This document shows positions 12,899 through 36,415 of a stretch of DNA of 64,000 nucleotides, piece after piece. Each line of letters opens with the position of its first letter. The first letter of the stretch is position 1. The stretch is from Escherichia coli (GTDB lineage Bacteria > Pseudomonadota > Gammaproteobacteria > Enterobacterales > Enterobacteriaceae), in the NCBI RefSeq assembly GCF_050920415.1, contig NZ_CP169309.1. The stretch is one strand, 5' to 3'. The position numbers were made by a program, and so were the translations under genes. The notes beneath the pieces are model-generated. The model was given only the letters and a program-made list of their open reading frames with translations. It was not told the DNA's origin and searched no databases.

Positions 12899-12960
12899 TA
12901 ATTTCGTAAATGCCGCGTGCAAACGTGGCATCCATGCGCCAGAATTTGTACAATGCAGCG

Positions 12961-13000
12961 CCCCCGGACGAGCAGCCGCTCACCGGGGCGTTTCTTTTTT
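12961..13000 (+). terminator. Candidate ndk terminator (cccccgg...ccgggg stem followed by tttctttttt)
   Basis: GC-rich inverted repeat followed by a T-run downstream of ndk. Confidence 0.45.
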
Positions 13001-13047
13001 CAACCCTCCAGGGGCCATAACGTGTAATAACGAGGCCGGAATAGCAT

Positions 13048-14202: not shown

Positions 14203-14213
14203 TAGCCATTACG

Positions 14214-14250
14214 CCACGGTTACTTTATGTACCGTGGCGTAATCTTTTAT
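14214..14250 (+). terminator. Candidate rlmN terminator (ttacgccacggt...accgtggcgtaa hairpin then T-rich run)
   Basis: 12-bp perfect inverted repeat immediately after the rlmN stop. Confidence 0.5.
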
Positions 14251-14486
14251 GAATGAAGTATTAAGTTGCAATTGTCTGGTCAATATTAACGGTGCGTTTT
14301 TGCTGACTTTAAGGCAGTATGTAACGATGCAACAGTAAGTTAGCCTTAGTGAATGTGGGCTTTGTCACGAGCACACAGACGGTCTTATACTGTATGATAA
14401 CGGTTAACTTAACGGATGTTTCGCGGTGTGGGTGAGCATGATGGTTCACCGGCATCTCAATTCTCATTTAAACGTACCTGCAGCGA

Positions 14487-15500: not shown

Positions 15501-15526
15501 CAGACGGGTAACGCGGGAGATTTTTC

Positions 15527-16645
15527 ATGCATAACCAGGCTCCAATTCAACGTAGAAAATCAACACGTATTTACGTTGGGAATGTGCCGATTGGCGATGG
15601 TGCCCCCATCGCCGTACAGTCCATGACCAATACGCGCACGACAGACGTCGAAGCAACGGTCAATCAAATTAAGGCGCTGGAACGTGTTGGCGCTGATATC
15701 GTCCGTGTCTCCGTACCGACGATGGACGCGGCAGAAGCGTTCAAACTCATCAAACAGCAGGTTAACGTACCGCTGGTGGCTGATATCCACTTTGACTATC
15801 GCATTGCGCTGAAAGTAGCGGAATACGGGGTCGATTGTTTGCGTATTAACCCTGGCAATATCGGTAATGAAGAGCGTATTCGCATGGTGGTTGACTGCGC
15901 GCGCGATAAAAACATTCCGATCCGTATTGGCGTTAACGCTGGATCGCTGGAAAAAGATCTGCAAGAAAAGTATGGCGAACCGACGCCGCAGGCATTGCTG
16001 GAATCTGCCATGCGCCATGTTGATCATCTTGATCGTCTGAACTTCGATCAGTTCAAAGTCAGCGTCAAAGCGTCTGATGTCTTCCTCGCTGTTGAGTCTT
16101 ATCGTCTGCTGGCAAAACAGATCGATCAACCGCTGCATCTTGGGATCACCGAAGCGGGCGGCGCACGTAGTGGGGCAGTAAAATCTGCCATTGGTTTAGG
16201 CCTGCTGCTGTCTGAAGGCATCGGCGACACGCTGCGCGTATCGCTGGCGGCCGATCCGGTCGAAGAGATCAAAGTCGGTTTCGATATTTTGAAATCGCTG
16301 CGTATCCGTTCGCGCGGGATCAACTTCATCGCCTGCCCGACCTGTTCGCGTCAGGAGTTTGACGTTATCGGTACGGTTAACGCCCTGGAGCAACGCCTGG
16401 AAGATATCATCACCCCGATGGACGTTTCGATTATCGGCTGCGTGGTGAATGGACCAGGTGAGGCGCTGGTTTCTACACTCGGCGTCACCGGCGGCAACAA
16501 GAAAAGCGGCCTCTATGAAGATGGCGTGCGCAAAGACCGTCTGGACAACAACGATATGATCGACCAGCTGGAAGCGCGCATTCGTGCGAAAGCCAGCCAA
16601 CTGGATGAAGCGCGTCGAATTGACGTTCAGCAGGTTGAAAAATAA
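15527..16645 (+). CDS. ispG: 4-hydroxy-3-methylbut-2-enyl diphosphate synthase
   Basis: 372 aa; C-terminal Cys motif CPTCSR...GCVVNGPGE. Confidence 0.9.
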
Positions 16646-16755
16646 TAACGTGATGGGAAGCGCCTCGCTTCCCGTGTATGATTGAACCCGCATGGCTCCC
16701 GAAATATTGAGGGGCGCGTTGAGGGTTCATTTTTATATTCAGAAAGAGAATAAAC

Positions 16756-18030
16756 GTGGCAAAAAACATTCAAGCCATTCGCGGCATGAACGATTACCTG
16801 CCTGGCGAAACGGCCATCTGGCAGCGCATTGAAGGCACACTGAAAAACGTGCTCGGCAGCTACGGTTACAGTGAAATCCGCTTGCCGATTGTAGAGCAGA
16901 CCCCGCTATTCAAACGTGCGATTGGTGAAGTCACCGACGTGGTTGAAAAAGAGATGTACACCTTTGAGGATCGCAATGGCGACAGCCTGACTCTGCGCCC
17001 TGAAGGGACGGCGGGCTGTGTACGCGCCGGCATCGAGCATGGTCTTCTGTACAATCAGGAACAGCGTCTATGGTATATCGGGCCGATGTTCCGTCACGAG
17101 CGTCCGCAGAAAGGGCGTTATCGTCAGTTCCACCAGTTGGGTTGCGAAGTTTTCGGTCTACAAGGTCCTGATATCGACGCTGAACTGATTATGCTCACCG
17201 CCCGCTGGTGGCGTGCGCTGGGTATCTCTGAACACGTAACTCTTGAGCTGAACTCTATCGGTTCGCTGGAAGCTCGCGCCAATTATCGCGATGCGCTGGT
17301 TGCATTCCTTGAGCAGCATAAAGAAAAGCTGGACGAAGACTGCAAACGCCGCATGTACACTAACCCGCTGCGCGTGCTGGATTCCAAAAATCCGGAAGTG
17401 CAGGCCCTTCTCAACGACGCCCCAGCATTAGGTGACTATCTTGACGAGGAATCTCGTGAGCACTTTGCTGGTCTGTGCAAACTGCTGGAGAGCGCGGGTA
17501 TCGCTTACACCGTAAACCAGCGTCTGGTGCGTGGTCTGGACTACTATAACCGTACTGTTTTTGAGTGGGTGACTAACAGCCTCGGTTCCCAGGGCACCGT
17601 GTGCGCAGGCGGTCGTTATGACGGTCTGGTGGAACAACTGGGTGGTCGTGCAACACCGGCAGTCGGTTTCGCGATGGGCCTCGAACGTCTTGTATTGTTA
17701 GTTCAGGCCGTTAATCCGGAATTTAAAGCCGATCCTGTTGTCGATATATATCTGGTGGCTTCAGGTGCTGACACACAATCTGCGGCTATGGCATTAGCAG
17801 AGCGTCTGCGTGATGAATTACCGGGCGTGAAACTGATGACCAACCACGGCGGCGGCAACTTTAAGAAGCAGTTTGCCCGTGCTGATAAATGGGGCGCCCG
17901 CGTTGCTGTGGTGCTGGGTGAGTCTGAAGTGGCTAACGGCACAGCAGTAGTGAAGGATTTGCGCTCTGGTGAGCAAACGGCAGTTGCGCAGGATAGCGTA
18001 GCCGCGCATTTGCGCACGTTACTGGGTTAA
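16756..18030 (+). CDS. hisS: Histidine--tRNA ligase
   Basis: 424 aa with GTG start ([18 protein letters not shown]); class II aaRS motifs. Confidence 0.9.
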
Positions 18031-18047
18031 GGAAGGAGAAGGACAGC

Positions 18048-18668
18048 GTGGAAATTTACGAGAACGAAAACGACCAGGTTGAAGCGGTTAAACGCTTTTT
18101 TGCTGAAAATGGCAAAGCACTGGCTGTTGGGGTGATTTTGGGCGTTGGCGCATTGATTGGCTGGCGCTACTGGAACAGCCATCAGGTTGATTCTACACGC
18201 TCCGCTTCTCTTGCCTATCAAAATGCGGTTACCGCAGTGAGCGAAGGCAAACCGGATAGCATCCCGGCGGCGGAAAAATTTGCTGCTGAAAATAAAAATA
18301 CCTATGGTGCGCTGGCTTCTTTGGAACTTGCGCAGCAATTTGTTGACAAAAATGAACTAGAGAAAGCTGCCACCCAGTTACAACAGGGATTGGCGGACAC
18401 GAGCGATGAAAATCTCAAAGCCGTGATAAATCTGCGTCTTGCCCGCGTTCAGGTACAGCTCAAGCAGGCTGATGCCGCGCTGAAAACCCTCGATACCATC
18501 AAAGGTGAAGGGTGGGCTGCCATTGTTGCCGACCTGCGTGGCGAAGCATTGCTGAGCAAAGGTGATAAGCAAGGTGCGCGTAGTGCATGGGAAGCAGGCG
18601 TGAAAAGCGATGTTACTCCGGCACTGAGCGAAATGATGCAGATGAAAATTAATAATTTGTCCATCTGA
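18048..18668 (+). CDS. yfgM: Membrane-anchored TPR-like protein YfgM
   Basis: 206 aa, GTG start, one N-terminal transmembrane segment; conserved position between hisS and bamB. Confidence 0.85.
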   Translation: MEIYENENDQVEAVKRFFAENGKALAVGVILGVGALIGWRYWNSHQVDSTRSASLAYQNAVTAVSEGKPDSIPAAEKFAAENKNTYGALASLELAQQFVDKNELEKAATQLQQGLADTSDENLKAVINLRLARVQVQLKQADAALKTLDTIKGEGWAAIVADLRGEALLSKGDKQGARSAWEAGVKSDVTPALSEMMQMKINNLSI

Positions 18669-18678
18669 GAGGGACCCG

Positions 18679-19857
18679 ATGCAATTGCGTAAATTACTGC
18701 TGCCAGGACTGCTTTCCGTTACCCTTTTAAGCGGCTGTTCGCTGTTTAACAGCGAAGAAGATGTGGTAAAGATGTCCCCATTGCCGACCGTTGAAAACCA
18801 GTTTACGCCGACCACGGCGTGGAGCACTTCCGTGGGTAGCGGCATTGGCAACTTCTATTCCAATCTTCATCCGGCACTGGCGGACAACGTTGTCTATGCA
18901 GCAGACCGCGCTGGTTTAGTAAAAGCGCTGAATGCGGATGATGGCAAAGAAATCTGGTCTGTCAGTCTGGCCGAGAAAGATGGCTGGTTCTCTAAAGAGC
19001 CTGCATTACTTTCTGGCGGCGTGACCGTGTCTGGAGGACATGTCTACATTGGTAGCGAAAAGGCGCAGGTTTACGCGCTGAATACCAGCGATGGTACTGT
19101 GGCATGGCAAACTAAAGTCGCGGGTGAAGCGCTTTCTCGCCCGGTGGTCAGCGACGGTCTGGTGTTAATCCACACCAGTAACGGTCAGTTGCAAGCCCTG
19201 AACGAAGCTGACGGCGCTGTCAAATGGACAGTTAACCTCGATATGCCTTCACTCTCTTTGCGTGGCGAGTCTGCGCCAGCAACGGCTTTTGGTGCGGCCG
19301 TCGTGGGTGGCGATAATGGTCGCGTCAGCGCAGTGCTAATGGAACAGGGCCAGATGATTTGGCAGCAGCGTATTTCCCAGGCGACCGGTTCTACCGAAAT
19401 TGACCGCCTGAGCGATGTTGACACGACTCCCGTCATTGTTAACGGCGTTGTTTTCGCGCTGGCCTATAATGGTAACCTGACGGCGCTTGATCTGCGCAGC
19501 GGTCAGATTATGTGGAAACGCGAACTGGGTTCGGTGAATGATTTCATCGTCGACGGCAACCGCATCTATCTGGTCGATCAAAATGACCGGGTGATGGCGT
19601 TGACCATTGATGGCGGCGTTACGCTGTGGACACAAAGCGATCTGCTGCATCGTCTGTTGACTTCTCCGGTGCTGTATAATGGCAACCTGGTGGTAGGTGA
19701 CAGTGAAGGTTATCTGCACTGGATCAACGTCGAAGATGGTCGTTTCGTTGCCCAGCAAAAAGTTGATAGCTCCGGTTTCCAGACTGAACCGGTTGCCGCT
19801 GACGGCAAACTGCTGATCCAGGCAAAAGACGGGACTGTGTACTCTATTACACGTTAA
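18679..19857 (+). CDS. bamB: Outer membrane protein assembly factor BamB (PQQ beta-propeller lipoprotein)
   Basis: 392 aa; lipobox LLSGCS. Confidence 0.9.
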   Translation: MQLRKLLLPGLLSVTLLSGCSLFNSEEDVVKMSPLPTVENQFTPTTAWSTSVGSGIGNFYSNLHPALADNVVYAADRAGLVKALNADDGKEIWSVSLAEKDGWFSKEPALLSGGVTVSGGHVYIGSEKAQVYALNTSDGTVAWQTKVAGEALSRPVVSDGLVLIHTSNGQLQALNEADGAVKWTVNLDMPSLSLRGESAPATAFGAAVVGGDNGRVSAVLMEQGQMIWQQRISQATGSTEIDRLSDVDTTPVIVNGVVFALAYNGNLTALDLRSGQIMWKRELGSVNDFIVDGNRIYLVDQNDRVMALTIDGGVTLWTQSDLLHRLLTSPVLYNGNLVVGDSEGYLHWINVEDGRFVAQQKVDSSGFQTEPVAADGKLLIQAKDGTVYSITR

Positions 19858-19974
19858 TCGTCTCTGTCGTTCACTTTGAAAACGGCTCCTGGACAGGGGC
19901 CGTTTTCCTGTTTTTAACAACGACACGAATATAGCGTGCGTTGTCTGATGATTTATAAAAATGAGGCTTTAAAC

Positions 19975-21447
19975 ATGGTACCTGTGGTCGCGCTTGTCGG
20001 GCGCCCTAACGTAGGAAAATCCACGTTATTTAACCGTCTAACTCGCACCCGAGATGCGCTGGTTGCGGATTTCCCGGGTCTGACTCGTGACCGTAAGTAC
20101 GGTCGTGCGGAAATTGAAGGCCGCGAGTTTATTTGTATTGATACCGGCGGGATTGACGGAACAGAAGACGGTGTAGAAACCCGCATGGCGGAACAGTCGC
20201 TGCTGGCGATTGAAGAAGCGGACGTCGTACTGTTTATGGTGGATGCGCGCGCGGGCCTGATGCCTGCGGATGAAGCGATTGCTAAACATCTGCGCTCCCG
20301 CGAAAAACCGACCTTCCTGGTGGCAAACAAAACCGATGGTCTGGATCCGGATCAGGCCGTTGTTGATTTCTATTCGCTCGGTTTAGGTGAAATCTACCCG
20401 ATCGCCGCATCTCACGGGCGTGGCGTATTAAGTCTGCTGGAGCACGTGCTGCTGCCGTGGATGGAAGATCTCGCACCACAAGAAGAAGTGGATGAAGACG
20501 CTGAGTACTGGGCGCAATTTGAAGCGGAAGAGAACGGCGAAGAAGAAGAGGAAGACGACTTTGACCCGCAAAGTCTGCCAATCAAACTGGCGATAGTGGG
20601 TCGTCCTAACGTCGGTAAGTCTACACTCACTAACCGTATCCTTGGCGAAGAACGCGTCGTAGTTTACGACATGCCGGGCACCACGCGTGACAGTATTTAC
20701 ATTCCAATGGAACGCGATGGACGTGAGTATGTACTCATCGATACTGCGGGCGTACGTAAACGCGGCAAAATCACCGATGCGGTAGAGAAATTCTCCGTAA
20801 TCAAAACATTGCAGGCGATTGAAGATGCCAACGTGGTGATGTTGGTGATTGATGCTCGCGAGGGTATTTCCGATCAGGATCTCTCCTTGCTGGGCTTTAT
20901 TCTCAATAGTGGGCGCTCACTTGTGATTGTAGTGAACAAGTGGGACGGCCTGAGCCAGGAAGTGAAAGAGCAAGTAAAAGAGACGCTGGACTTCCGTCTG
21001 GGCTTTATCGACTTCGCCCGTGTGCATTTTATCTCTGCATTACACGGCAGCGGCGTTGGTAACCTGTTTGAGTCAGTACGTGAAGCGTATGACAGTTCCA
21101 CCCGTCGTGTGGGGACATCTATGCTGACGCGTATCATGACCATGGCGGTTGAAGATCACCAGCCGCCGCTGGTTCGCGGGCGTCGTGTGAAGCTGAAATA
21201 TGCCCACGCCGGTGGTTACAATCCGCCGATTGTGGTGATTCACGGCAACCAGGTGAAAGACCTGCCTGATTCCTATAAGCGTTATCTGATGAACTACTTC
21301 CGCAAGTCTCTGGACGTGATGGGTACGCCGATTCGTATTCAGTTCAAAGAAGGGGAAAACCCATATGCGAACAAGCGTAACACCTTGACGCCGACCCAAA
21401 TGCGCAAGCGTAAGCGTTTGATGAAGCATATTAAGAAAAGTAAGTAA
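19975..21447 (+). CDS. der: Ribosome biogenesis GTPase Der (EngA), tandem GTPase domains
   Basis: ORF 19936-21447; ATG at 19975 gives 490 aa; two [10 protein letters not shown]-loops. Confidence 0.9.
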
Positions 21448-21509
21448 TCACTTATCTGGTTTCCCTTTCCAAACGGAGAGGGAAACTGAACAACAGGCGA
21501 GGAGTATTT

Positions 21510-21725
21510 ATGGAACTCAACTGCCCAACCTGCCATAACCCTCTCGAACGCAACGGTGAAACTGCCCACTGTGCAACTTGTGCCAAAGATTTCACCATTC
21601 AGGCGCTTTGTCCTGACTGCCATCAGCCATTACAGGTGTTAAAAGCTTGTGGTGCAGTAGATTATTTCTGCCAGCATGGGCACGGTTTAATATCCAAAAA
21701 GCGCGTTGAATTTATTGTTGCTTAA
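21510..21725 (+). CDS. yfgJ: Zinc-ribbon protein YfgJ
   Basis: 71 aa with CPTC...CATC...CPDC...HGH motifs; downstream of der as in K-12. Confidence 0.8.
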   Translation: MELNCPTCHNPLERNGETAHCATCAKDFTIQALCPDCHQPLQVLKACGAVDYFCQHGHGLISKKRVEFIVA

Positions 21726-21916
21726 TATTATTTAAATATATGGTGTAATCATTTGTATTCATAATATAAATGATTGCATCCTATTTTATTTGTTGAAACG
21801 CAAATGTAAGTGAGCAAAATCACTGTGTTATAAATTTAAGATTATATTTAGTTTTCCTGGCGTGCCTTTCTGAATAATCTGGAATAGAATATTAGAGCTA
21901 ATTTTAAGCATTATTA

Positions 21917-24109
21917 ATGTCACAGGGGATGTGCATGCTGCGATGGAAACGCTGTATTATGCTAACATTTATCTCTGGAGCTGCTTTTGCGGCTCCAGAG
22001 ATAAATGTTGAGCATAAAGAATCGTTACCTGATTTAGGTAGTCAGGCCGCACAACAGGAAGAACAAACCAACAAGGGTAAATCGCTAAAAGAGCGTGGTG
22101 CCGATTACGTCATTAACTCTGCCACGCAAGGGTTTGAAAACCTGACACCCGAGGCGCTGGAGTCCCAGGCCAGAAGCTATCAGCAAAGTCAAATTACCTC
22201 TACGACACAATCTTATATTGAGGATACACTCTCCCCCTACGGTAAGGTCCGAACGAATCTTTCTCTTGGTCAGGGCGGCGATCTGGATGGCAGTTCCATC
22301 GACTATTTTGTTCCCTGGTATGATAATCAAACTACTGTTTATTTCAGCCAATTTTCTGCACAACGAAAAGAAGATCGTACGATCGGGAATATTGGGCTTG
22401 GTGTAAGACATAATTTTGATAGATGGTTATTGGGTGGAAATATATTTTATGATTATGATTTTACCCGTGGGCATCGCCGTTTAGGTTTAGGCGCCGAAGC
22501 GTGGACTGATTATTTAAAATTCTCTGGCAACTATTATCACCCGCTTTCTGACTGGAAAGACTCCGAAGATTTCGATTTTTATGAGGAGCGTCCTGCGCGC
22601 GGTTGGGATATTCGCGCCGAAACCTGGCTACCCGCTTACCCGCAGATTGGCGGCAAAATCGTTTTCGAACAATATTACGGTGATGAAGTCGCGCTTTTTG
22701 GCACCGATAATCTGGAGAAAGATCCCTTCGCCGTCACGCTGGGTGTGAAATACCAGCCCGTACCACTCATTGCCGTAGGAACGGATTTCAAAGCCGGCAC
22801 TGGCGATAATACCGATCTTTCTGTTAACGCAACGCTGAACTACCAGTTTGGTGTCCCGCTCAAAGACCAGCTTGATCCTGACAAAGTGAACGCGGCTCAC
22901 TCGCTCATGGGCAGCCGCCACGACTTTGTTGAACGTAACAACTTTATTGTTCTGGAATACAAAGAGAAAGATCCGCTCGATGTCACTTTGTGGCTGAAAG
23001 CCGATGCGACGAATGAACATCCCGAGTGCGTGATTAAAGATACGCCAGAAGCAGCCATCGGGCTGGAAAAATGTAAGTGGACCATTAACGCGCTCATTAA
23101 TCATCACTACAAAATCGTTGCTGCCTCCTGGCAGGCGAAAAACAATGCTGCACGTACGCTGGTGATGCCGGTTATCAAAGAAAATACGCTTACTGAAGGT
23201 AACAACAATCACTGGAATCTGGTGCTGCCTGCCTGGCAGTACAGCTCTGATAAAGCCGACCAGGAAAAACTCAATACCTGGCGGGTACGGCTGGCGCTGG
23301 AAGATGAAAAAGGCAATCGGCAGAACTCCGGCGTGGTGGAAATCACCGTTCAGCAGGATCGTAAAATTGAGCTCATCGTTAACAACATCGCCAATGTACC
23401 GGATGAGAACAATCACAGCCACGAAGCCAGCGCGCAAGCGGATGGTGTAGATGGTGTCGTCATGGATCTCGACATTACCGATAGCTTTGGCGACAACACT
23501 GACCGTAACGGTAATGTCTTGCCGCAGGATAATCTCAGCCCGCAGCTGTTTGATGCCAACGATAAAAAAGTGACGCTGACGAATAAACCCTGCACCACTG
23601 AAGTGCCGTGCGTTTTTATCGCCAAACAAGATAAAGAAAAGGGGACCGTTACGCTCTCCAGTACGTTGCCCGGTACTTTCCGCTGGAAGGCGAAAGCCGC
23701 CCCTTATGATGACAGTAACTATGTTGACGTAACGTTCCTGGGTTCTGACATCGGCGGGCTGAATGCTTTTATCTACCGCGTTGGTGCAGCTAAGCTCGTC
23801 AATCTTATCGGCAACAAAGAACCGTTGCCTCTCAATAGCCGCTATCGCTTTGTGCTGTGGCGCGACGCTAACAAAGACGGCGTGTTCCAGCTTTCTGAGA
23901 AGCTCACTGACGACGAGATGAAACAGTATGACTATCAGTGGGAATTCACGGGGAATAGCGTAAATGGCAATACCGGTGCGCAAACCAATACCACGAACGT
24001 CGATATAGAGATTCCGGCAACCAACAAGGACGCGGCAGCAAAGTTTAGTGCCCAGGTAACCGATGGCGTGCAGGGATACGGTTTGCAGGTCAATTACAGC
24101 AAGAAATAG
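21917..24109 (+). CDS. sinH: Intimin/invasin-family inverse autotransporter (SinH-like outer-membrane adhesin)
   Basis: 730 aa; signal peptide; beta-barrel region typical of intimin/invasin (YFVPWYDNQTTVYFSQFSAQRKEDRTIGNIGLGVRHNF); preceded by AT-rich leader 21726-21916; start among ATGs at 21917/21929/21935 uncertain. Confidence 0.75.
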   Translation: MSQGMCMLRWKRCIMLTFISGAAFAAPEINVEHKESLPDLGSQAAQQEEQTNKGKSLKERGADYVINSATQGFENLTPEALESQARSYQQSQITSTTQSYIEDTLSPYGKVRTNLSLGQGGDLDGSSIDYFVPWYDNQTTVYFSQFSAQRKEDRTIGNIGLGVRHNFDRWLLGGNIFYDYDFTRGHRRLGLGAEAWTDYLKFSGNYYHPLSDWKDSEDFDFYEERPARGWDIRAETWLPAYPQIGGKIVFEQYYGDEVALFGTDNLEKDPFAVTLGVKYQPVPLIAVGTDFKAGTGDNTDLSVNATLNYQFGVPLKDQLDPDKVNAAHSLMGSRHDFVERNNFIVLEYKEKDPLDVTLWLKADATNEHPECVIKDTPEAAIGLEKCKWTINALINHHYKIVAASWQAKNNAARTLVMPVIKENTLTEGNNNHWNLVLPAWQYSSDKADQEKLNTWRVRLALEDEKGNRQNSGVVEITVQQDRKIELIVNNIANVPDENNHSHEASAQADGVDGVVMDLDITDSFGDNTDRNGNVLPQDNLSPQLFDANDKKVTLTNKPCTTEVPCVFIAKQDKEKGTVTLSSTLPGTFRWKAKAAPYDDSNYVDVTFLGSDIGGLNAFIYRVGAAKLVNLIGNKEPLPLNSRYRFVLWRDANKDGVFQLSEKLTDDEMKQYDYQWEFTGNSVNGNTGAQTNTTNVDIEIPATNKDAAAKFSAQVTDGVQGYGLQVNYSKK

Positions 24110-24164
24110 GGTCGGCGCCATGGCTGATCGGGCCACCGCTGAATATTAATCAAGGAGAGTGTTT

Positions 24165-25157
24165 ATGAAACCTGATATGAAACGTGGCCTGACAAAAGTC
24201 GCGCTCGCGTTGATGCTGGCTGGATACTGTGCCGTACCAGCCGCTATGGCGGAAGATGCCGCCTGGGTCGCCAGTGGAACGACCGCTGAATTCGAGGGGA
24301 CTATACCCTGGCTCTATCGCGAAGGGGGGAATGCCACGATTAACTCGGAAGATGCGGATCACATTAAAGTGACGTCTGATGGTAAAGGGACCCGTCCTGA
24401 AGGTAGCGAGACGGATAAACGCCTTTACTCAGGGGATACCATCACGCTGGGTTGGGATATCGGCGATACCGAAGGGGATATTGATGATGGTCCCGCAGGC
24501 ATTGATGCGAAAACGACAGCCACTATCAAATGGTACAGTTACAGCGATAATGCGGGTGGCGGTAAAACGGAGCTGACCGCAGCGGCAGGCAAGACGAGTT
24601 ATAAACTCACTGATGACGAACGTGGGCGTTATATCGGTGTTGAAATCCAGCCCATCACCCAGACCGGTAATCCTTTCCAGGGAACGTCGCTGACTCTGCT
24701 GGATATTTCAACGGCCAGCGGTGGCGGCAGCGATACGGACAATGTCGATCCCGGCCCGGTTGTGAACCAGAATCTGAAAGTTGCCATCTTCGAGAAAGGC
24801 ACCACTACCAACCTTATCGGTGGTAATACGGCCATTGCGCTTAACAAAACGTATGTGGCCAAACTGTACTCGGATGAAAACCAGAACGGTAAATACGACG
24901 CAGGTACGGATATGGACGTTACCGCTAACTATGACTTTGCATGGGTCTTTAACGGTAACAGTAAACAACTCGGTGCGGCGGGCGGTATTGCTAATGCCAG
25001 CTTCGATAACAATGACATTGTTATCCCGCAAACTAACGAAGAAGCAAGAACCAGCCTTAACGGTAGTGACCGTAATGGTAAGAGTGGTCTTGCGATCCCG
25101 GCAAACGGCGACGGCGTTCAGGGCTATACGCTGTCAATTATTTACAAACACCACTAA
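24165..25157 (+). CDS. Secreted protein, SinI-like; paralogous to the SinH C-terminal passenger region
   Basis: ORF 24159-25157; ATG at 24165 with RBS aaggagag; signal peptide; C-terminus ...GDGVQGYTLSIIYKHH parallels SinH ...DGVQGYGLQVNYSKK. Confidence 0.5.
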   Translation: MKPDMKRGLTKVALALMLAGYCAVPAAMAEDAAWVASGTTAEFEGTIPWLYREGGNATINSEDADHIKVTSDGKGTRPEGSETDKRLYSGDTITLGWDIGDTEGDIDDGPAGIDAKTTATIKWYSYSDNAGGGKTELTAAAGKTSYKLTDDERGRYIGVEIQPITQTGNPFQGTSLTLLDISTASGGGSDTDNVDPGPVVNQNLKVAIFEKGTTTNLIGGNTAIALNKTYVAKLYSDENQNGKYDAGTDMDVTANYDFAWVFNGNSKQLGAAGGIANASFDNNDIVIPQTNEEARTSLNGSDRNGKSGLAIPANGDGVQGYTLSIIYKHH

Positions 25158-25197
25158 TGCGCACAACAGCATTCCCATACGGGGATGCTGTTTTCCG

Positions 25198-25249
25198 CCT
25201 GTTTTGCTTAGCGACGCGTTAAGCAAAACAGGTTGATGTTTTGTTTATC
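25198..25249 (+). terminator. Strong hairpin (13-bp perfect arms cctgttttgctta / taagcaaaacagg) followed by T-rich tract, between sinI-like and ratA-like genes
   Basis: Inverted repeat read directly; could be a terminator or attenuator in front of ratA. Confidence 0.4.
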
Positions 25250-26209
25250 ATGCTGGAGTTTTCTACATGTCGGTATGTCTGAAACCTGGGAAAATCATTA
25301 TGCTTCTGGGCATGTTGGCAGCTTTTATGCTGTCTGACTTTGCACGGGCAGGGGCGGAATGGCAGACATATCCTGATTCTACAGGCGAGTTTAACGGAAC
25401 CGTTCCTTTTGCCGACAGCGCCAGCGTACCCGTCTATCAGGGCAGTGTTCAGCTTAATCCTGCTGAATCTCATGATGTCGGGTTTACTGCTAAACCGAAT
25501 GAATTTAGCGTTGACGATGACGCTGCTAACCTGATTGTTGCTAATCCTCAGGACAATGAAGGCGACCAGTTTTCCACACCACCTGCGCTGCGCTGGGAAA
25601 ATCAAACACCCCCTACCGTCAGCCTGATGTGGGCCGATGCCGCCACGCCCGATGTGCCCCTTAACCCACAACCCATTGCTAACCGTAGCTTTTGCGCTCA
25701 GGGGCTGGCCGGACGCTCGCTGGTGGCCTGGCCGCAGATTGATGCGCAGCAAACCCTCCCACTGCTCTACCTGCTTACCTCGACCGGGTATCCCTATGCG
25801 GGGACGGTGGCGCTGGTGGACCAGAAAGTGACCCTGAACATCGCGCCCGCGCAGGGCGATTTAATCTCGGTGAGCGCCAGTGGTTATAACGAAACGATCG
25901 CGGCGGCAAAAACCACCGTTGGCGACACCATCACGCTCACCGTCACCACTAAAGATTGTCAGGGCAACGTCGCGGGTAATATTCCGTTTATTATCAAACG
26001 TAAAGATGCTGAAAATCGCCAGGGGGCGGTGAATAATAGTGCGCCGGTGATACTGGATAGCACCGAGTTAACGACGACGGATACCGAATACCATGGCACT
26101 TCTGATGCCAACGGCACGGCCACCATCACGGTGAGCCAACCGAATGGCCCTGGCGTCAAAACGCCATTGGTGGTCAGCATCTCCGGTTTTGCGCAAACCA
26201 GCGAAACCG

Positions 26210-29200
26210 CGGTGATTTTTACGGTACTCACCAGCCCGGACGTGGCGCAGGCTACGATGTGGGGCCATATGGCGGAGACGGTAGAAGCCCACGGTTACAC
26301 CTTCAGTCGACCAAAGCTGGCGGCAGAAGTCAGCAATGAAAGCGCCACGGTCGTCGATCATAACGAAACCTGGTCCACCTTCACCTGGAGCGGCGCAGAT
26401 AGCCACTGCACCGTGCTGCCCGGCATGCGCCACTTCGGCGCGCTGGCGACCGTTATCCCCACGTCGGTGCAGACAGTCCTTGGCTGGCCGATGCAGGGGG
26501 ATTATTACTGGTCATCGCTGGCGGGCACCACCGGGCACCACCGGGCAGCACCATGCGGCGGATGTTTCAAACCGTGGTGAAATGCAAAAGCCGGATAGCA
26601 CCCCGTTTCTTGTGAGCTGCGTGGATAAACCCGCGCCTGACGTCGAACCGAAAATCGTCCTTACGCCCGAAAACTATGATGATACGGCACAGGCGATGAA
26701 AGCGAAGGTGGGTGAAGACGCCTCGATGCGTCTGACAATCACCGACAATAAAAATAACGATCAACCGCTGGCGTATTACTACTTCTCGCTGCATCTGGAT
26801 GACGGTGTTAACCGCAAAAATCAAACCGATCCTGCCTGGGAAGCCCATCCGGTGCAGATTACTGGTGGTTCGAATTTGCAACAGGTTGATGCTCACACCT
26901 ATGAAGGCATGACCGATGTCAACGGTCAGGCTTCGCTAACCCTGAGCCAGCCCGACGGCGCAGGCGTGAAAACCCATATCACGGCGAAAATGCGCAGCAA
27001 TTTTACGGCCACGGATGCCAAAGACGTGATTTTTACTGTGATCACCAGTCCGGACAGCGACAAGGCGCGGATGTGGGGCCATATGCGCGGCATTGTTGTA
27101 TCTGGCAGTCTGTTCAAACGCCCATTACTTGCGGATGAAACTGAGCATGAACTGGGATCGGTGCGGGAAAATAACGAAGACTGGGCGCTGTTCGATCAAG
27201 ACACCAGTATGCAGGCAGAATGCGGTGTGGGCCATATACCCCGGCAGAGTTCGCTGGAAGGCTTATTTACTGCCCATCCAGGCAACGCCATCGGCACGGA
27301 ATATGGCTGGCCCACCGCACAACAGAGCTACTTAAGCGCGGCGGAGCAAGCCACGCATTCATCGGTGAATTTGGCGAACGGGAGCGTCGACAGCTACTCC
27401 GGCTTTAAGCGAAATTATCTCTCCTGTTCGGGCAATGAGATGGTAGCGAACGTTGAAGTCAGCACCGATCACGATATTACTCTCGGCAGCAAAGCACAGG
27501 CCAAAGTGGGAGACACCATCGTGATGACCGTGCGTACGATTAACGCGCTCAATAATACCCCCGTTCCCTTTACAGCCTTCACCATCACTAAAGGCATGGG
27601 GTATAACCGAGCGGGGCAGGTGAGCGGGTTTGATGACCCGAGCAGCGGCGCAATCACGATGAATGGCACGCAATACGGCACATCGCAGCCCTCTATGGTC
27701 TACACGGGTACGACAGATGCACAAGGTGTAGCAACGGTCGAAATAGAGCAACCCCAAGGGGTGGGGTTAAGAACCGTGCTGAGCATTACGCCGGTCAATT
27801 CCCATCTACCAAATGCCATTAATTACAATGTTATTTTTACCACCCCAACCAGCCCGGATGTTAGTGGGGCGCAGATGTGGGGCCATATGGATGAAACGAT
27901 TACCGTTGATTCATTAACCTTTACCCGGCCTAAGCTGGCAGCAGAAATCACCAGTCCGGATGGCACATTAACGGAAAAAAACGAAGTCTGGGCGCGTGTT
28001 AGCCAGGCAAGTACGGCCATTACCAGTAAAGGCGGTTGCGGAGCCAATATGCTGCCGCGCCGCTCACAGCTCAATGCGCTCTATGACGCTAATAACGGCA
28101 ATGCGGTGCAAACCACACACGGCTGGCCGACGCAGCGTCAGCCCTACTGGAGCAGTTCCCCCGCGGATGTAACGCCGCACTATTACACCATTGCCCTGGA
28201 TAACGGCGCACAGGCTATCGGCGGCGATACGCCGGTTTACGTCAGTTGCCTGACGACGGCGAACAAACCTGCCAGCAGCATTACGTTGGATGTGGTTGAT
28301 AACGCACAGTGGGCTGCCGGAAATAACGCGGCGAAGCTGAAAAAAGGCGAAACGCTACGGGTTAAGGTAACGGTAAAAGATGCGCAGGGTAATCCGCTCA
28401 CGGATATGCCATTTAAACTCAGTCGCGGAGACGGTTATACCCGCACGGGCGAAAAACATATTGCCGGTAGTGGCGATGCGCTGGTGGCACCGGTGGTGAT
28501 TAACAGTGGGCTGGCGGATGAAACGACGTTGAACGACACCGCGGGATTTTATACTGCCATGACCAGTAGCGACGGCAGCAAAATCCTCAATATTACACGC
28601 CCGGATACTCACGGCACCAAAACGGCGCTGACGGCGACGCTTTACTCTGATGCGACGAAAAAAGACAGCCTGGATACGATCTTTACTGTGGTCACCAGCC
28701 CGGATAGTAGCAAAGCGAAAATGTGGGGCCATATGCCGGAAACCTTAACGGCGGCAGATGGTACCGTTTTTAAACGCCCATTGCTGTTAAAGGAACTGTC
28801 AAGTCAGACCGGGCGAACATCAATATTCGAAGACAATGAAAACTGGGCGCTGTTTACCCAAACCCAGGCGAACTCAACCAGTAGCGGCTGCGGCGCTAGC
28901 TATGTTCCCACTCAGGCTGGGTTGTTGTCGTTGTTTGATAATCACGCCGGCAATACCATAAAAACCGTCCAGGGCTGGCCGGTTGTAACGCGTTATTTAT
29001 CCAGCACGCCCGACAACACTGGCATGGAACAGCGTAACTACAAAGCGGTGGATCTCGGTAATGGCACCAGTGCCATGGTGTCAACGTCGACACTGGATCT
29101 ACTGACCTGTCAAACCACGCCGGTCACCACGGTGACCCAGATTCTACTGGAAGCGGCAGATCCTGCGGCTCTGGTTTATGTTGACGATACACTGAGTGTA

Positions 29201-32200
29201 GTTAAAGCCAAAAAAGGCGAAGAGTCGGTAGTGCGCGTCACCACGAAAGATGCGCAAGGTAACCCGGTTGGCAATGCGGCGTTTATTCTGAAACGTGCCA
29301 CCAGCATAAACCGGAGGTATACATCAGCGACAGCGAGTGCAGGTGCGCTGACCGTAGCCGATGCCTGGGGAAATACGCGGAGTAATTTTCAGGCAACAAC
29401 TGAAATGATCTATGGCGTGACGGGGGCTGACGGGTCGACAACCTTTACGCTGAAACAGGATAACAGTACCGGGTTAAGAACCGATCTCACGGCATCACTG
29501 GATGGCGTCAGCGGCGTTCAGGCGACCCTCCCGGTGGTCTTTACCGTGGTAACCAGCCCAGATTCTCCTAAAGCGAATTTTTGGGGGCACATGCCTGAAA
29601 CGGTAACGGCCTCTGATGGCATGACGTATAAGCGACCATTACTGTTTAAAGAACTTACCAATAACTATGCACGCTATAGCACTTTTGAGAATGGTGAAGA
29701 TTGGGCAAGATTCAGTGTGGTTCAGTCAAATAACACCGATATGGATGGATGCGGTGCAGAGTATATGCCGACACTGGATGGCCTGCAGTCTTTGTACAGT
29801 GCCAATAGTGGTAATGCGATGGGTACAGTGCAGGGATGGCCGGTAGCAACCAGTTATCTCACCAATACACCGAGTGATACGCAATTAAGTAACCGTTATT
29901 ACAATGTGGTGCAGCTGAATTCTGGCGCGGTTTCTCAAATCGTGACCACCGTGCTGGTATTACAAACCTGTCGCACAACACCTGCGGCTGTTGCCAGCCA
30001 CGTGTCTCTGGAGCCTGCGGACGCCACGCAATTCGTTAAGGTTGACGATAATCTGAGCGCCATTAAAGTGAAAAAAGGCGATGAGGTTGTTATTCGCGTC
30101 ACGACCAAAGATGCGCAAGGAAACCCGGTGGGTAATACGCCGTTTACACTGAAGCGCAGCAGTTCTTTCAATCGCCAGAATGTATTAGTGACGATGCAGA
30201 CGGTTTCGGTGACACCCGCAGCGGCCAGTACAGTTGATACCAATGCATCGGCCACCGTGTATGGCGTGACCGGGCCAGACGGAACCACCACGATAACACT
30301 CCGACAGGATGCGTCCACCGGACTTAAAACCGACTTTTATGCCCTGTTGAATGATACCGGGGTGTCGTCGAACACCTTGCCAGTGATCTTCACCGTCGTC
30401 ACCAGCCCGGATACACCGCTGGCGGCCAACTGGGGGCATATGGCGGAAACCTTTACCAGCAGCGAAGGCGTCACCTTCAAACGGCCTTTCCTCAAAGCTG
30501 AACTTTCTGGTGGTACGGCGGTTACGACTAATAATGAAGTCTGGTCGCGTCTGACAGCAACGGAGAAAATGGATGCCAGCAAGGCTGGATGTGATGAGAG
30601 TTATCAACCGCTGATGACTGACATGCAGGGGTTGTATGCGGATTACCCTAACAACCAGTTGGGCACGGTGCTCGGCTTGCCGACTTCCGCAGGGTATATG
30701 TGGGCCTACGACATGATGACGGTTTCTGGCAGCAGCTGGAGCAACCAGGCATATTCGCTCGTTAATGGTCAGATAGTTCAGGCATCGTCCAGTTATACGG
30801 CGGTAGTGATGTGCCTGGTGGAACCGCATACCGTTCCGGCGACGATAGCGATCACTTCAACAGCGCAGGATGTGGCAAAAACGGCCAGCAATGGTGGTCG
30901 ACCGAGCGCCGTGGCGAAGAAAGGTGAGACGATTCCGCTGACGGTGACCGTACGTGATAGCGCCGGGAACCCGGTGCCCTACGCCGACTTTACCCTCACG
31001 CGTGAAACGACGCTGGATCGCTCGAAAGCAACCGTTAACTCAAATGCGGACGATCTTACCGTGAAGTCATTGATACCCGTGAACAGCGACGCTGGGCTGA
31101 CGGCAAATGGGTCAAAAGTGCTCAGAACAACGGGCAGTGATGGCACAGCCACCTTTGAAGTGAGTCAGAATGCCACGACCGGTCTGGCGACACCGATAAC
31201 CGTCACGCTGGCGCGCGATACAACCAAAACCGCCACGCTGGATGTTATCTACACGGTGATAACCAGCCCGGACTCACCGAGCGCGAAATTCTGGGGGCAC
31301 ATGCCGGACACCTTTACCAGTTCGGCAGGCGTCACCTTCAGACGACCGCTGCTGAAAGCCGAAGCGACTTCAGGGTCATCGATTAGCACTAACGGCAATG
31401 GTGAAGTGTGGTCGTATATGAGCAACTTTCAAAATTTAACATCGACAGATTGTCCGCTGGAGAATCAACCGCGCAGTAATGAATTGTTGGATTTGTATAA
31501 TGATCATCCCAACGGTGCGATAAAGACTGACCTGGGGCTGCCGATATATGCAGGCAAGTGGTGGGCTTATGATATGGTCATGCCGGATTTATATACGTGG
31601 CAGTATCAAACTGTCAGCCTGAGCGCAGGAGATATCGCGAAGAGCTCGTCAACCAACGCGCTGATGCTTTGCCTGACGAAGCCGCATCCGGCAGGCGTCA
31701 GCGTAATGTTGACGTCATCCGCAATGGATAACGCCAGAACCCTCAGTAATGGCGGGCGACCCAGCGCGTCAGTGAAAAAAGGTAACCCACTGCCAATTGT
31801 GGTGACGGTCAAAGATCGTGATGGTAACCCGCTGGCGGGAGAGGCCGTGACGCTCAGGCGTGGTTCAGCGATGAGTCGTTCAGGAGCAGGAGTGAACACG
31901 ACGGCAAATGCAATTACGTTGACAGAATTGACACCTGTGTCGGCGGAGTTTTCTCTGGCCGCACACGATACGCAATGGCAAGGTTTCACCGGCAGTGATG
32001 GTACGGCCACTTTCAATGTTGAACAGCCTGAGACCATCGGCCTGGCCATTCCATTCACCGCTATACTGGCGCGAGATGTCGCAACTACCAGCGTTCTTGA
32101 TGCGATCTTTACCGTCGTCACCAGCCCGGATTCCGCAATGGCGACCTACTGGGGCCATATGCCAGATACGGTAACGGCGGAAAACGGCGTGGTCTTTGAA

Positions 32201-33000
32201 CGGCCTAAATTGTTGAAAGAGCTGCCGTCGAGCGCTGGAGTCAGTCAGGTGACGGATAACAATGAAGTGTGGCCGTTGTTTAACGCAACGCAAAGGGTAG
32301 ACGGCAACCTCAGCCCATGTGAATCGGCGCGTCGCCCATTGAGCGATGATTTATCATCGCTCTATGCGCGTTATCCGGGGAACACGCTGACGACTCAAAT
32401 CGGCTGGTCTACGAAGTATGCATGGTGGGCACTGGATAACAGGCAGGGGAATGCCCTGGTTGTCAGTCTGAGTAATGGTTTGGAGTCGTCGACGGCGAGT
32501 ACGGCGTATCAGGGATGTCTGGTCAATCCTCGCGCGACCGTCTCCAGCGTCACGCTGACATCGACCGCGATGGATGCCATTACTCAGGCGGCGAAGGTAA
32601 AAAAAGGTGAAGCCATGCCCATTGTCGTTACCGTAAAAGACAGCACCGGGAAGCCGGCACCGAATGTCGCGTTCACCTTAAAACGTGGTGATGCCGTGCC
32701 GCGTAACAGCGGGGCGACGTTGTATGGTAATGTTGCGGCGATGGATGATATGACGGTACAACCTGCCAGCGGGACGGTGGTAACGCTGGCTGACAGTGGG
32801 AATACGATTGATGGTGTGACAGGGGCGGACGGTACGGCAAGTTTTACTGTTCGTCAGGATAATACGCCAGGATATAAAACACCGTTGACGGTGACGCTGA
32901 CGGATAACGCCACAATAACGGCGACGCTGGACACAATTTTCACCGTGCCGACCAGCCCGAATGTCGCCACGGCGTATTTCTGGGGGCATATGGCGGATAC
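26210..33000 (+). repeat. Array of about nine diverged ~850-bp coding tandem modules within ratA
   Basis: Conserved DNA/protein core ttYaccgtggtcaccagcccggat...tggggccatatg recurs near 26210, 27040, 27830, 28680, 29540, 30390, 31250, 32100, 32940. Confidence 0.7.
26523..26552 (+). repeat. Three tandem copies of a 10-bp unit (gggcaccacc, gggcaccacc, gggcagcacc) at the ratA frameshift
   Basis: Read directly; removing one copy restores a continuous frame reading ...[19 protein letters not shown]... Confidence 0.8.
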
Positions 33001-33419
33001 CGCCACAGTAAGTGGCAAGACGTTACATCGCCCGCTATTGAAATCAGAGTTGCCGTCAGGGGCTACAGCGGCAGTGGCGCCAACGGTGAATAATGAAATC
33101 TGGGCGCTGGCACATGTGATCGATGCTCAAAAATGGGATGTTGCAAAGCAGTGCGGTGACTTTAGTAAAGCACCGAGCTATACCGATTTACAGTCATTAC
33201 ATAGCAGCTTTAGCGCGCTGGGATGGCCATCATCGATAAGCTTCCCCTATTTCTCTACCGATCGGGCCGGTTCGTTCTATTGTGGCATGGATGAAGGGGC
33301 GGGGACACAAAACTGCGGTATTCAGGCATCCAGTACTGCGGGGTTTGCAACCTGCTTCCAGTAGTCTTAACGGGTCTGTAAATGGGGGCCAAGATGTAAA
33401 TAAGATTCGCAATGCGTCA

Positions 33420-34817
<1,398 letters not shown>

Positions 34818-34948
34818 TTATTCAGTCGATAGTAACCCGCCCTCCGGGGATAGCAAGCATTTTTTGCAAAAAGGGGTAGATGCAATCGGTTACGCTCTGT
34901 ATAATGCCGCGGCAATATTTATTAACCACTCTGGTCGAGATATTGCCC

Positions 34949-36415
34949 ATGCTACGTATCGCTAAAGAAGCTCTGACGTTTGACGACGTTCTCCTCGTTC
35001 CTGCACATTCTACCGTTCTGCCGAATACCGCTGACCTCAGCACCCAGCTGACGAAAACTATTCGTCTGAATATCCCTATGCTCTCCGCAGCAATGGATAC
35101 CGTAACGGAAGCGCGCCTGGCTATCGCCCTGGCTCAGGAAGGCGGTATAGGCTTTATCCACAAAAACATGTCTATCGAGCGCCAGGCTGAAGAAGTTCGC
35201 CGTGTGAAAAAACACGAATCTGGCGTGGTAACCGATCCGCAGACCGTACTGCCAACCACGACGCTGCGCGAAGTGAAAGAGCTGACCGAGCGTAACGGTT
35301 TTGCAGGCTATCCGGTTGTGACCGAAGAAAACGAACTGGTCGGCATCATCACCGGTCGTGACGTGCGTTTTGTTACCGACCTGAACCAGCCGGTCAGCGT
35401 TTACATGACGCCGAAAGAGCGTCTGGTAACCGTGCGTGAAGGCGAAGCCCGTGAAGTTGTGCTGGCAAAAATGCACGAAAAACGCGTTGAAAAAGCGCTG
35501 GTGGTTGATGATGAATTCCACCTGATCGGCATGATCACTGTGAAGGACTTCCAGAAAGCGGAGCGTAAACCGAACGCCTGTAAAGACGAACAAGGCCGTC
35601 TGCGTGTAGGTGCAGCGGTTGGTGCAGGTGCGGGTAACGAAGAGCGTGTTGATGCGCTGGTTGCCGCAGGCGTTGACGTTCTGCTGATCGACTCCTCTCA
35701 CGGTCACTCTGAAGGTGTTCTGCAGCGTATCCGTGAAACTCGCGCTAAATATCCTGACCTGCAAATCATCGGCGGCAACGTGGCAACAGCAGCAGGTGCC
35801 CGCGCGCTGGCAGAAGCCGGTTGCAGTGCCGTTAAAGTGGGTATCGGCCCAGGTTCTATTTGTACTACCCGCATTGTTACTGGCGTCGGTGTACCGCAGA
35901 TCACTGCCGTTGCTGACGCAGTAGAAGCCCTGGAAGGCACCGGGATTCCGGTTATCGCTGACGGTGGTATTCGTTTCTCTGGCGATATCGCGAAAGCTAT
36001 CGCTGCTGGTGCAAGCGCGGTGATGGTAGGCTCCATGCTGGCAGGTACGGAAGAATCCCCAGGTGAAATCGAACTCTACCAGGGCCGTTCTTACAAGTCT
36101 TACCGTGGGATGGGCTCTCTGGGCGCGATGTCCAAAGGTTCTTCTGACCGTTACTTCCAGAGCGACAACGCTGCCGACAAACTGGTGCCGGAAGGTATCG
36201 AAGGTCGCGTAGCCTATAAAGGTCGCCTGAAAGAGATCATTCACCAGCAGATGGGCGGCCTGCGCTCCTGTATGGGCCTGACCGGCTGTGGTACTATCGA
36301 CGAACTGCGTACTAAAGCGGAGTTTGTACGTATCAGCGGTGCGGGCATTCAGGAAAGCCACGTTCACGACGTGACCATTACTAAAGAGTCCCCGAACTAC
36401 CGTCTGGGCTCCTGA
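34949..36415 (+). CDS. guaB: IMP dehydrogenase
   Basis: ORF 34880-36415; ATG at 34949 ([21 protein letters not shown]) gives 488 aa; CBS domains and catalytic [11 protein letters not shown] loop. Confidence 0.95.

Follow-up and report, generated by a model that had tools for sequence, protein, structure and literature searches.

The DNA between yfgJ and xseA in Escherichia coli MFDS1022581 is an adhesin locus that has already been described, as ila in E. coli and as the CS54 type in Salmonella, and it lies at its usual site. In all likelihood it is a chromosomal short form of that locus which is old and has been retained here, was lost in K-12-like strains, and has had its giant adhesin gene, ratA, broken by a recent, clonal 10-bp duplication. 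A sequence-only reading of the window (the whole stretch of 64,000 nucleotides that was analyzed) had taken the state of ratA to be the new element; the RefSeq annotation of this strain already flags the giant gene as frameshifted, and the new detail here is instead the nature of the lesion, a 10-bp tandem duplication, together with its clonal spread. The ila/CS54 locus is a colonization factor and SinH is under study as a vaccine antigen against ExPEC. The features of the locus are as follows.

21510-21725, plus strand: yfgJ, the left neighbor, encoding a zinc-ribbon protein of 71 aa (RefSeq annotation)
21726-21934, plus strand: AT-rich non-coding leader upstream of sinH
21935-24109, plus strand: sinH, encoding a 724-aa intimin-like autotransporter of the inverse type (type Ve; RefSeq start 21935)
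21957-22017, plus strand: stem-loop in the signal-peptide codons of sinH, with a core 21-nt inverted repeat at 21964-22009 and a 4-nt loop
24165-25157, plus strand: sinI, encoding a 330-aa member of the SinI family of autotransporter-associated proteins, which has an apparent Sec signal peptide
25165-25233, plus strand: two tandem stem-loops in the sinI-ratA gap, hairpin 1 at 25165-25192 followed by TTTT, and hairpin 2 at 25197-25233
25267-33364, plus strand: pseudogene of a giant ratA-like adhesin (annotated by RefSeq as 'adhesion domain-containing protein, frameshifted')
26522-26541, plus strand: 10-bp tandem duplication, CGGGCACCAC twice and then CGGGCA, the frameshifting lesion
26578-26580, plus strand: premature TGA stop, which truncates the ratA product
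26582-33364, plus strand: open downstream frame of the ratA-like gene, 2260 codons with no signal peptide
33420-34787, minus strand: xseA, the right neighbor (RefSeq annotation)

The open reading frames and coordinates of the sequence-only reading agree with those that we re-derived and with the RefSeq annotation. Its statement that yfgJ and xseA are adjacent in K-12 also proved accurate: in K-12 MG1655 the two genes are convergent and share a 4-nt overlap, leaving no intervening sequence, so that the leader, sinH, sinI and the 8.1-kb ratA-like gene (21726-33419) represent 11,694 bp, or ~11.7 kb, that is extra relative to K-12. These 11,694 bp are indeed absent from K-12; the further suggestion that they had been inserted probably has the direction wrong, for the locus has the look of an ancestral one that K-12-like strains have lost. 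The ratA-like gene is separated from xseA by a gap of 55 nt that holds no gene. Because similarity to K-12 is already lost or low in the stretch that begins at the der stop (21449) and takes in the 5' half of yfgJ, as well as at 33420-33487 in the 3' end of xseA, the variable segment spans ~12.0 kb and is not bounded exactly by gene ends. Residues 1-32 of YfgJ are 34% identical to K-12 and 72-84% identical to YfgJ of Salmonella and of island-bearing Escherichia, and the C-terminal half shares 95% identity with K-12; to judge by these identities, the N-terminal half of yfgJ belongs to an 'island-type' allele. Across the other border, the nucleotide identity of xseA with K-12 is 84-89% over 33500-34500; the last ~22 residues of its product differ.

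The first gene, sinH, has a Shine-Dalgarno-like AGGGGA 8 nt ahead of its ATG (21935), and an alternative in-frame ATG upstream, at 21917, has no ribosome-binding site. Its product matches the NCBIfam equivalog NF033423 over the whole model (1-730 of 730) with 1467 bits against a cut-off of 999, carries the Pfam domain IAT_beta (PF11924; residues 69-342, E 9e-105) with ~390 residues beyond it, and is 72-79% identical to Salmonella SinH, so that its proposed homology and its assignment to the intimin/invasin family of outer-membrane proteins both stand, the surface location being predicted. From what is known of the family, the barrel (residues 69-342) would sit in the outer membrane, and the C-terminal Ig-like passenger would be displayed or would act in export.

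Directly downstream of sinH, sinI (with an alternative GTG start at 24159) encodes a protein that matches NF040711 with 376 bits (cut-off 165). A Pfam search of SinI returned no domain, IAT_beta included, and the protein thus has no beta-barrel. Over its final ~115 residues it shares 33% identity with the C-terminus of SinH (622-721; BLASTP E 3e-11), and the family models cross-match between SinI 213-331 and SinH 623-729. The description of SinI as a small secreted paralog agrees with its family match, its apparent signal peptide and the C-terminus that it has in common with SinH, and the protein would act as a Sec-exported partner bearing the last domain of SinH. A candidate N-terminal export motif common to SinI and RatA, EFxGT[IV]P[WF] directly following the signal peptides, was rejected as non-significant (BLASTP E 0.12).

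The giant gene is broken into a 437-aa and a 2342-aa open reading frame in different frames. For scoring against protein families, the sequence was repaired by removing one copy of the duplication, which yields a product of 2695 aa with a signal peptide, an N-terminal region of ~190 aa and nine modules, each an Ig-like BIg21 domain followed by an InvE_AD adhesion domain. The nine repeats are spaced 804-861 nt apart in the gene, with the Pfam domains BIg21 and InvE_AD alternating, and the repaired protein matches NF011844 / PRK15316 'RatA-like protein' with 5405 bits (cut-off 3870), as expected of the giant Ig-like repeat protein that had been proposed. Scores against Salmonella RatA (NF011843, 2039 bits) and RatB (NF011842, 2245 bits) lie below the respective cut-offs of 3700 and 4079; on this basis the giant protein is a homologue and not an equivalog of either. 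A structural model of one repeat (pLDDT 75.5, moderate) matched InvE of Yersinia pseudotuberculosis (PDB 5n40; Foldseek E 1.7e-12, 29% identity), and each RatA repeat is modeled, like InvE, as an Ig-like domain with a terminal adhesion domain. Unlike InvE, in which a single module is carried at the tip of an inverse autotransporter, the RatA-like protein has nine in tandem and no beta-barrel. If intact, it would be a Sec-exported chain of nine such InvE-like modules.

Shea et al. reportedly described the ila (intimin-like adhesin) locus sinH-sinI-ratA of UPEC/ExPEC in 2022, a study cited by PMC12928451, PMC12525524 and PMC9937491. The window resembles ila in its three genes, their order, the chromosomal site (CE10; UTI89 for sinH) and the NCBIfam families, and differs in that its allele is rare and divergent and its ratA-like gene frameshifted. 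In PMC12928451, the ila cluster of sinH, sinI and ratA is presented as derived from CS54, and its deletion as attenuating UPEC; SinH has been assigned to phylogroups B2, D, F and G (PMC9937491). The CS54 order in Salmonella enterica is xseA-shdA-ratB-ratA-sinI-sinH-yfgJ (Kingsley et al. 2003, as cited in PMC3739510 and PMC2658671), and CS54 genes have recurrently been pseudogenized in some lineages (PMC2658671). The earlier equation of the locus with CS54 is right as to the site between yfgJ and xseA and the order sinH-sinI-ratA, which are common to both. The full 25-kb CS54 of S. enterica subspecies I has shdA and ratB, both of which are absent here, and the giant protein is no RatA equivalog. 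A short form without shdA and ratB is known from S. bongori, subspecies II and E. coli (PMC3739510).

A more distant likeness exists to Salmonella ZirT/ZirS/ZirU, in which an inverse autotransporter is followed by barrel-less signal-peptide proteins with passenger-type Ig-like domains, an arrangement also seen here, where SinI ends in the C-terminal domain found in SinH. Only the architecture is alike, and the export of SinI and RatA via SinH is putative. By analogy with the published ZirT/ZirS pair, the RatA-like protein may reach the surface with the help of SinH; a ZirT-like translocator model has been discussed as a hypothesis (PMC4943183).

The locus is accessory in E. coli and not universal, as had been anticipated. 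Genes for SinH (at least 80% coverage) were found in 1751 of 5426 complete genomes (~32%), the rest matching nothing but paralogues (fdeC, yeeJ and air among them), and the locus is absent from ~68%. Outside E. coli, yfgJ, sinH, sinI, ratA and xseA follow one another likewise in E. whittamii, E. albertii, two further members of Escherichia, Citrobacter, three Pseudocitrobacter and two Superficieibacter. The suggested synteny comparison with K-12, ExPEC and Salmonella gave an empty site in K-12 and a common sinH-sinI-ratA order in a Salmonella contig (L033; der-yfgJ-sinH-sinI-ratA-ratB), which was located by protein search and exact-sequence look-up. The synteny of the sampled genomes makes the locus look ancestral in enterobacteria. 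The allele in the window is rare and divergent, with at least 90% identity in only 24 of the 5426 genomes; it shares 86.8% identity with the CE10-type allele and ~77% with the next group, the latter over only two thirds of its length. The depth of allele divergence equals that of the host species.

An alternative reading, in which the 11.7 kb was horizontally acquired as a pathogenicity island that entered an E. coli backbone at the yfgJ-xseA junction, would fit its absence from K-12 and from so many other genomes, the wording of a review that calls it a horizontally acquired island (PMC12525524), and the AT-rich leader, which at 24.6% GC over 21726-21916 (191 nt), as against 51.5% for the whole window, is as AT-rich as had been claimed. 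Nevertheless, position and gene order are constant in at least six genera, among which the alleles are as divergent as their hosts, and in GC content the island (52.4%) is close to its flanks (51.7-52.1%), so that the coding DNA matches the backbone and only the 191-nt leader deviates. Neither mobility genes, integrase nor insertion sequence is present in the RefSeq annotation of the locus, and searches for tRNA genes and for direct or inverted repeats at its flanks came back empty; the mobility genes, tRNA or repeat borders and deviant composition by which mobile genomic or pathogenicity islands are recognized are all missing from the locus.

Genus borders have evidently been crossed, since Pseudocitrobacter vendiensis carries a copy whose identity is 99.4-100% in most segments of 500 nt, set between flanks of only ~80% identity, which speaks for acquisition. 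In its CPO20170097 assembly, the breakpoints lie at ~10,450 and ~22,400 of locus L015. The flanks in the window are also unusually divergent from K-12 (the der 3' end, the yfgJ 5' half, xseA and guaB), which makes it clear that homologous recombination has carried the locus from lineage to lineage. Such movement, which blurs the line between 'retained' and 'acquired', appears to be allele replacement at a resident locus and no insertion, and we regard de novo insertion of an island as improbable. For typing and for vaccine coverage, it matters that alleles are 13-25% apart in DNA and exchangeable between genera, and that clones silently lose the giant RatA-like adhesin.

In ratA, alignment with four intact alleles places a single 10-nt insertion at 26522-26541; all four have one copy, and in them a CGGGCA...CGGGCA pair is already present, 10 nt apart. 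Slippage of strands between these two pre-existing repeats would have duplicated the 10 bp, shifting the ratA frame at codon 424 and leading to a stop at codon 438. The truncated product has 437 aa, of which 423 are native and 14 out of frame, and the stop at 26578-26580 leaves no intact ratA-like open reading frame. One base past it, the downstream frame starts with an ATG that corresponds to Met436 of the intact protein, with GGTGA just upstream, and this frame is called by gene callers in sister assemblies. Since the 6.8 kb beyond the frameshift is still free of further stops and frameshifts, with dN/dS against the intact alleles of ~0.2 on either side (0.18-0.21 downstream), the lesion looks recent relative to allele divergence. 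The signal peptide would be present only on the stub, any 2260-codon product being made with no export signal; with that signal confined to the 437-aa stub, RatA-dependent adhesion has presumably been lost, and sinH and sinI are intact. The stub, if made at all, would be ~45 kDa in size; strain N96 is among those with an intact allele.

An error of sequencing or assembly, with ratA really intact, might be suspected from the occurrence of the duplication in only one of the 5426 complete RefSeq genomes, the other complete-genome matches being without the lesion. A 10-bp duplication is unlike a homopolymer-type error, however, and it recurs in two loci (L029 and L030) that are 99.98-99.99% identical to the window. 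Exact matches to the 437-aa product are indexed in 84 blocks of the collection, and it occurs on 60 contigs, including that of E. coli STEC_7v, among many independent NCBI and Logan assemblies down to a 2011-era draft; we therefore reject an artefact, which is barely conceivable. The frameshift is real and clonally inherited, and marks one clonal lineage, whose sister isolates include GCA_015278885.1 and DRR168430. It is a convenient clonal marker, with little wider consequence.

Could the duplication instead be a reversible switch, with slippage among the three CGGGCA repeats restoring full-length RatA, so that the gene is 'off' rather than dead? A perfect tandem repeat can be removed by the same slippage that made it, and the uninterrupted downstream frame would be in keeping with this, yet such a frame is equally expected of a gene that died recently. 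Two repeat copies are far below those of typical contingency loci, all four intact alleles examined have a single copy, and an exact look-up among ~15 billion proteins did not find the repaired RatA-like protein, which would represent an intact revertant or ancestor, whereas the broken form is widely indexed. A switch is thus very unlikely, and a recent, inherited loss of ratA is the reading that we retain.

In the leader, which is poorly conserved between alleles, a single weak sigma-70-like site (21793-21820) is no better than chance. A scan for promoter and terminator consensus sequences showed no enrichment over shuffles, and its sole standout was the terminator-like match at the hairpins between sinI and ratA; a search of 21000-35000 against Rfam gave no match at E up to 1. 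These tandem hairpins have a minimum free energy of -50.4 kcal/mol (z = -7.0). Among 12 sequences from five genera, 96.6% of cells are paired, as against 36-47% when the pairing is slid, and in 12 of 25 pairs both partners have changed (0 of 500 shuffles). Going by these patterns, they likely comprise the terminator of a sinH-sinI transcript and a second element. Co-transcription of sinH and sinI has been described (PMC12525524), and the two genes would form one transcription unit that ends at the conserved terminator hairpin, with ratA separate after it.

The stem-loop within sinH reaches -56 kcal/mol for 121 nt (z = -8.1). In 16 sequences, 72.8% of its cells are paired compared with ~40% when slid, and its covariation score is 0.301 as against 0.209 in shuffles (0 of 500). 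We suggest only tentatively that the locus carries undescribed cis-acting RNA structures, namely this 21-28-bp stem-loop and the sinI-ratA tandem hairpins, kept across genera by compensatory substitutions; the stem-loop in sinH could be a candidate translation gate or RNase III site. Were the hairpins functional regulators, they would offer a handle on how a vaccine-candidate adhesin is switched on, and would be the sole part of the locus with new mechanistic content. In the sinH stem-loop, third codon positions pair with third codon positions.

The window matches the chromosome of E. coli MFDS1022581, a strain from animal-source food in Korea, at 100%, and the ORF listing and RefSeq annotation, from which the gene order below is taken, place a sinH-sinI-ratA-like locus between yfgJ and xseA at exactly the coordinates proposed in the sequence-only reading (21726-33419). 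The locus has been published before, as the ila cluster (PMC12928451) and as CS54 (PMC3739510), and is already annotated in the RefSeq record of the source genome, including a pseudogene flag on ratA. The earlier observation was right and its interpretation essentially so. To this the analysis adds the precise nature of the ratA lesion, its clonality and its recency; it also replaces 'insertion' by 'retained old locus with allele exchange' and yields three side leads of modest interest.

Genes of the locus and its flanks
der, ends at 21447
yfgJ, 21510-21725
non-coding stretch, 21726-21934
sinH, 21935-24109, with an earlier in-frame ATG at 21917
sinI, 24165-25157
giant 'adhesion domain-containing protein' gene (ratA-like), 25267-33364, flagged 'frameshifted' in RefSeq
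xseA, 33420-34787, on the strand opposite to sinH-sinI-ratA
guaB and guaA, after xseA

The proposed AT-rich leader is present (21726-21916, 24.6% GC), and the earlier statement on K-12 is correct: in MG1655, yfgJ and xseA run towards each other and share 4 nt. SinH, described earlier as an intimin/invasin-family protein, scores 1467 bits against the NCBIfam SinH equivalog, above its cut-off of 999, carries an inverse-autotransporter beta domain at residues 69-342, and is 72-79% identical to Salmonella SinH proteins. SinI passes its family model (376 bits; cut-off 165) and has no domain in a Pfam search; its description as a small paralogue of SinH holds for the final ~115 residues (33% identity to the SinH C-terminus, E 3e-11) and not for the remainder. 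With one copy of a 10-nt duplication removed, the giant gene codes for 2695 residues that pass NF011844, the model for 'RatA-like protein', at 5405 bits (cut-off 3870) and fall under the equivalog cut-offs of both Salmonella RatA and Salmonella RatB. This protein consists of nine units of ~270-290 residues, each with one BIg21 Ig-like domain and one InvE_AD 'adhesion domain'; a single unit, modelled with AlphaFold (pLDDT 75.5), matches InvE, an adhesin of Yersinia (PDB 5n40, E 1.7e-12). SinI and the RatA-like protein also share EF(E/N)GT(I/V)P(W/F) a few residues past the predicted signal-peptide cleavage site, a resemblance that may be due to chance (pairwise E 0.12).

Motif regions, protein level
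24249-24290, SinI
25357-25398, RatA-like protein

The locus is accessory, as had been proposed: sinH occurs in 1751 of 5426 complete genomes (32%), the others matching paralogues only, a frequency that fits the reported distribution of SinH in phylogroups B2/D/F/G (PMC9937491). The claim that it was inserted requires correction. A search for a tRNA, an integrase and bordering repeats at the locus found none, and the GC content of the island (52.4%) equals that of its flanks. The order yfgJ-sinH-sinI-ratA-xseA recurs in E. whittamii, E. albertii and two more Escherichia species, in three Pseudocitrobacter, two Superficieibacter and one Citrobacter, and in Salmonella, where one contig reads der-yfgJ-sinH-sinI-ratA-ratB. 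Because marks of mobility are missing, GC is that of the backbone and gene order is common across genera, we read the empty site of K-12 as a loss of the locus.

Nor are the borders clean. On the left, K-12 is 96-99% identical at 17.5-20 kb, 88% in the 3' end of der, and no longer similar over the 5' half of yfgJ; on the right, xseA shows 84-89% identity and guaB 91-95%, and 97% is regained only in guaA. The N-terminal half of YfgJ is 72-84% identical to the type found in Salmonella and island-bearing Escherichia, versus 34% to the K-12 type. In a derivative of EPEC E2348/69 (L008, 4274-7369), a different occupant of this chromosomal site, a tyrosine recombinase with hypothetical genes, directly follows der in the expected place of yfgJ.

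Border segments diverged from K-12
20500-21447
21449-21605
33420-36000

The allele in the window is rare (24 genomes at ≥90% identity); the common CE10-type is 86.8% identical to it, and the alignment of a third group, at ~77%, spans two thirds of its length. In the type strain of Pseudocitrobacter vendiensis, CPO20170097T (L015), the flanks share ~80% identity with the window and 90-97% with other Pseudocitrobacter, whereas ~12 kb from mid-sinH to mid-xseA (~10,450-22,400, equivalent to window ~22,450-34,400) matches the window at 97.5%. In the sinH 3' part, sinI and ratA, most 500-nt windows reach 98-100% and many 99.4-100%. On these identities, the segment looks like a recent allele replacement between genera, unless the assembly is chimeric. 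SinI has a multispecies Enterobacteriaceae listing, and ratA is intact in P. vendiensis. Short contigs from a MAG labelled Collinsella (L014) and with the label Rhizobium wenxiniae (L023, 426 nt) encode pieces of SinH with 92-98% identity to the E. coli protein, most likely through contamination or mis-binning.

The state of ratA had been put forward as the new element; a pseudogene flag was already on record, and the lesion itself can now be specified. Alignment with the intact alleles of N96, 24A16CRGN010, EC42405 and CE10 reveals a single window-specific lesion, a 10-nt insertion that creates the perfect tandem duplication CGGGCACCAC CGGGCACCAC at 26522-26541. Intact alleles already contain CGGGCA-CCAC-CGGGCA at this site, and slippage between the two 6-nt CGGGCA repeats would generate the duplication. 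The broken product has 423 native and 14 foreign residues, with a stop at 26578-26580; one base further, an ATG at 26582, corresponding to Met436 in the intact protein, starts an open frame across the 2260 codons that are left, whose product would be without a signal peptide. Apart from the source strain, none of the 5426 complete RefSeq genomes has the duplication. Even so, the 437-aa product occurs in identical form in the protein collection on 60 contigs, with E. coli STEC_7v among the named sources, and is indexed by 84 blocks of the assembly collection; two near-identical loci (L029 and L030; 99.98-99.99% identity over 13-19 kb) both have the duplication. Since the product recurs and these loci share the duplication, the lesion is real and inherited. 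The repaired protein in its exact window form is absent from the protein collection. The dN/dS against intact alleles is ~0.2 for the whole gene and downstream of the frameshift alike, and ratA was therefore under constraint until recently. In a Salmonella enterica assembly (L033, Logan SRR10822497; 13351-19551), where two abutting ORFs of 1182 and 883 aa occupy the ratA position, ratA may be interrupted too.

Two structured elements, neither region with an Rfam match, accompany these genes.

Predicted structures
21964-22009 (extended 21957-22017), sinH stem-loop, 21-nt inverted repeat with a 4-nt loop
25165-25192, hairpin 1 between sinI and ratA
25197-25233, hairpin 2 between sinI and ratA

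The sinH stem-loop lies within the signal-peptide codons, in a 121-nt stretch folding at -56 kcal/mol (z = -8.1). Across 16 homologous sequences, one of which supplied the structure, 72.8% of cells are paired versus ~40% with partners slid, and none of 500 shuffles reaches the covariation score. Third codon positions lie opposite one another in the stem, and compensatory changes between Escherichia alleles are partly synonymous, as where GGA/GCT in one allele group is GGT/GCA in another (both changes synonymous). The long stem is Escherichia-specific, with a shorter one in Pseudocitrobacter and Citrobacter; neither the main S. enterica allele nor one variant of E. coli SinH (L037) has the stem-loop.

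For the tandem hairpins the folding energy is -50 kcal/mol (z = -7.0). A set of 12 sequences covering five genera has 96.6% of cells paired versus 36-47% when slid, with both-sided changes in 12 of 25 pairs (0 of 500 shuffles). The hairpin 2 core, TTTGCTTA...TAAGCAAA, is conserved. A near-invariant T-run directly 3' of hairpin 1 suggests, most simply, a terminator of the sinH-sinI transcript, which would fit the reported co-transcription of the two genes (PMC12525524). In E. coli O145:H28 strain 16003 (L007), whose sinH is a frameshifted pseudogene (4536-6717) beside SinI and RatA-like genes annotated as intact, and in Escherichia sp. E1V33 (L013), the sinI-ratA spacer is extended to 282 and 278 nt, respectively, by ~165 nt of additional structured sequence inserted into hairpin 1.
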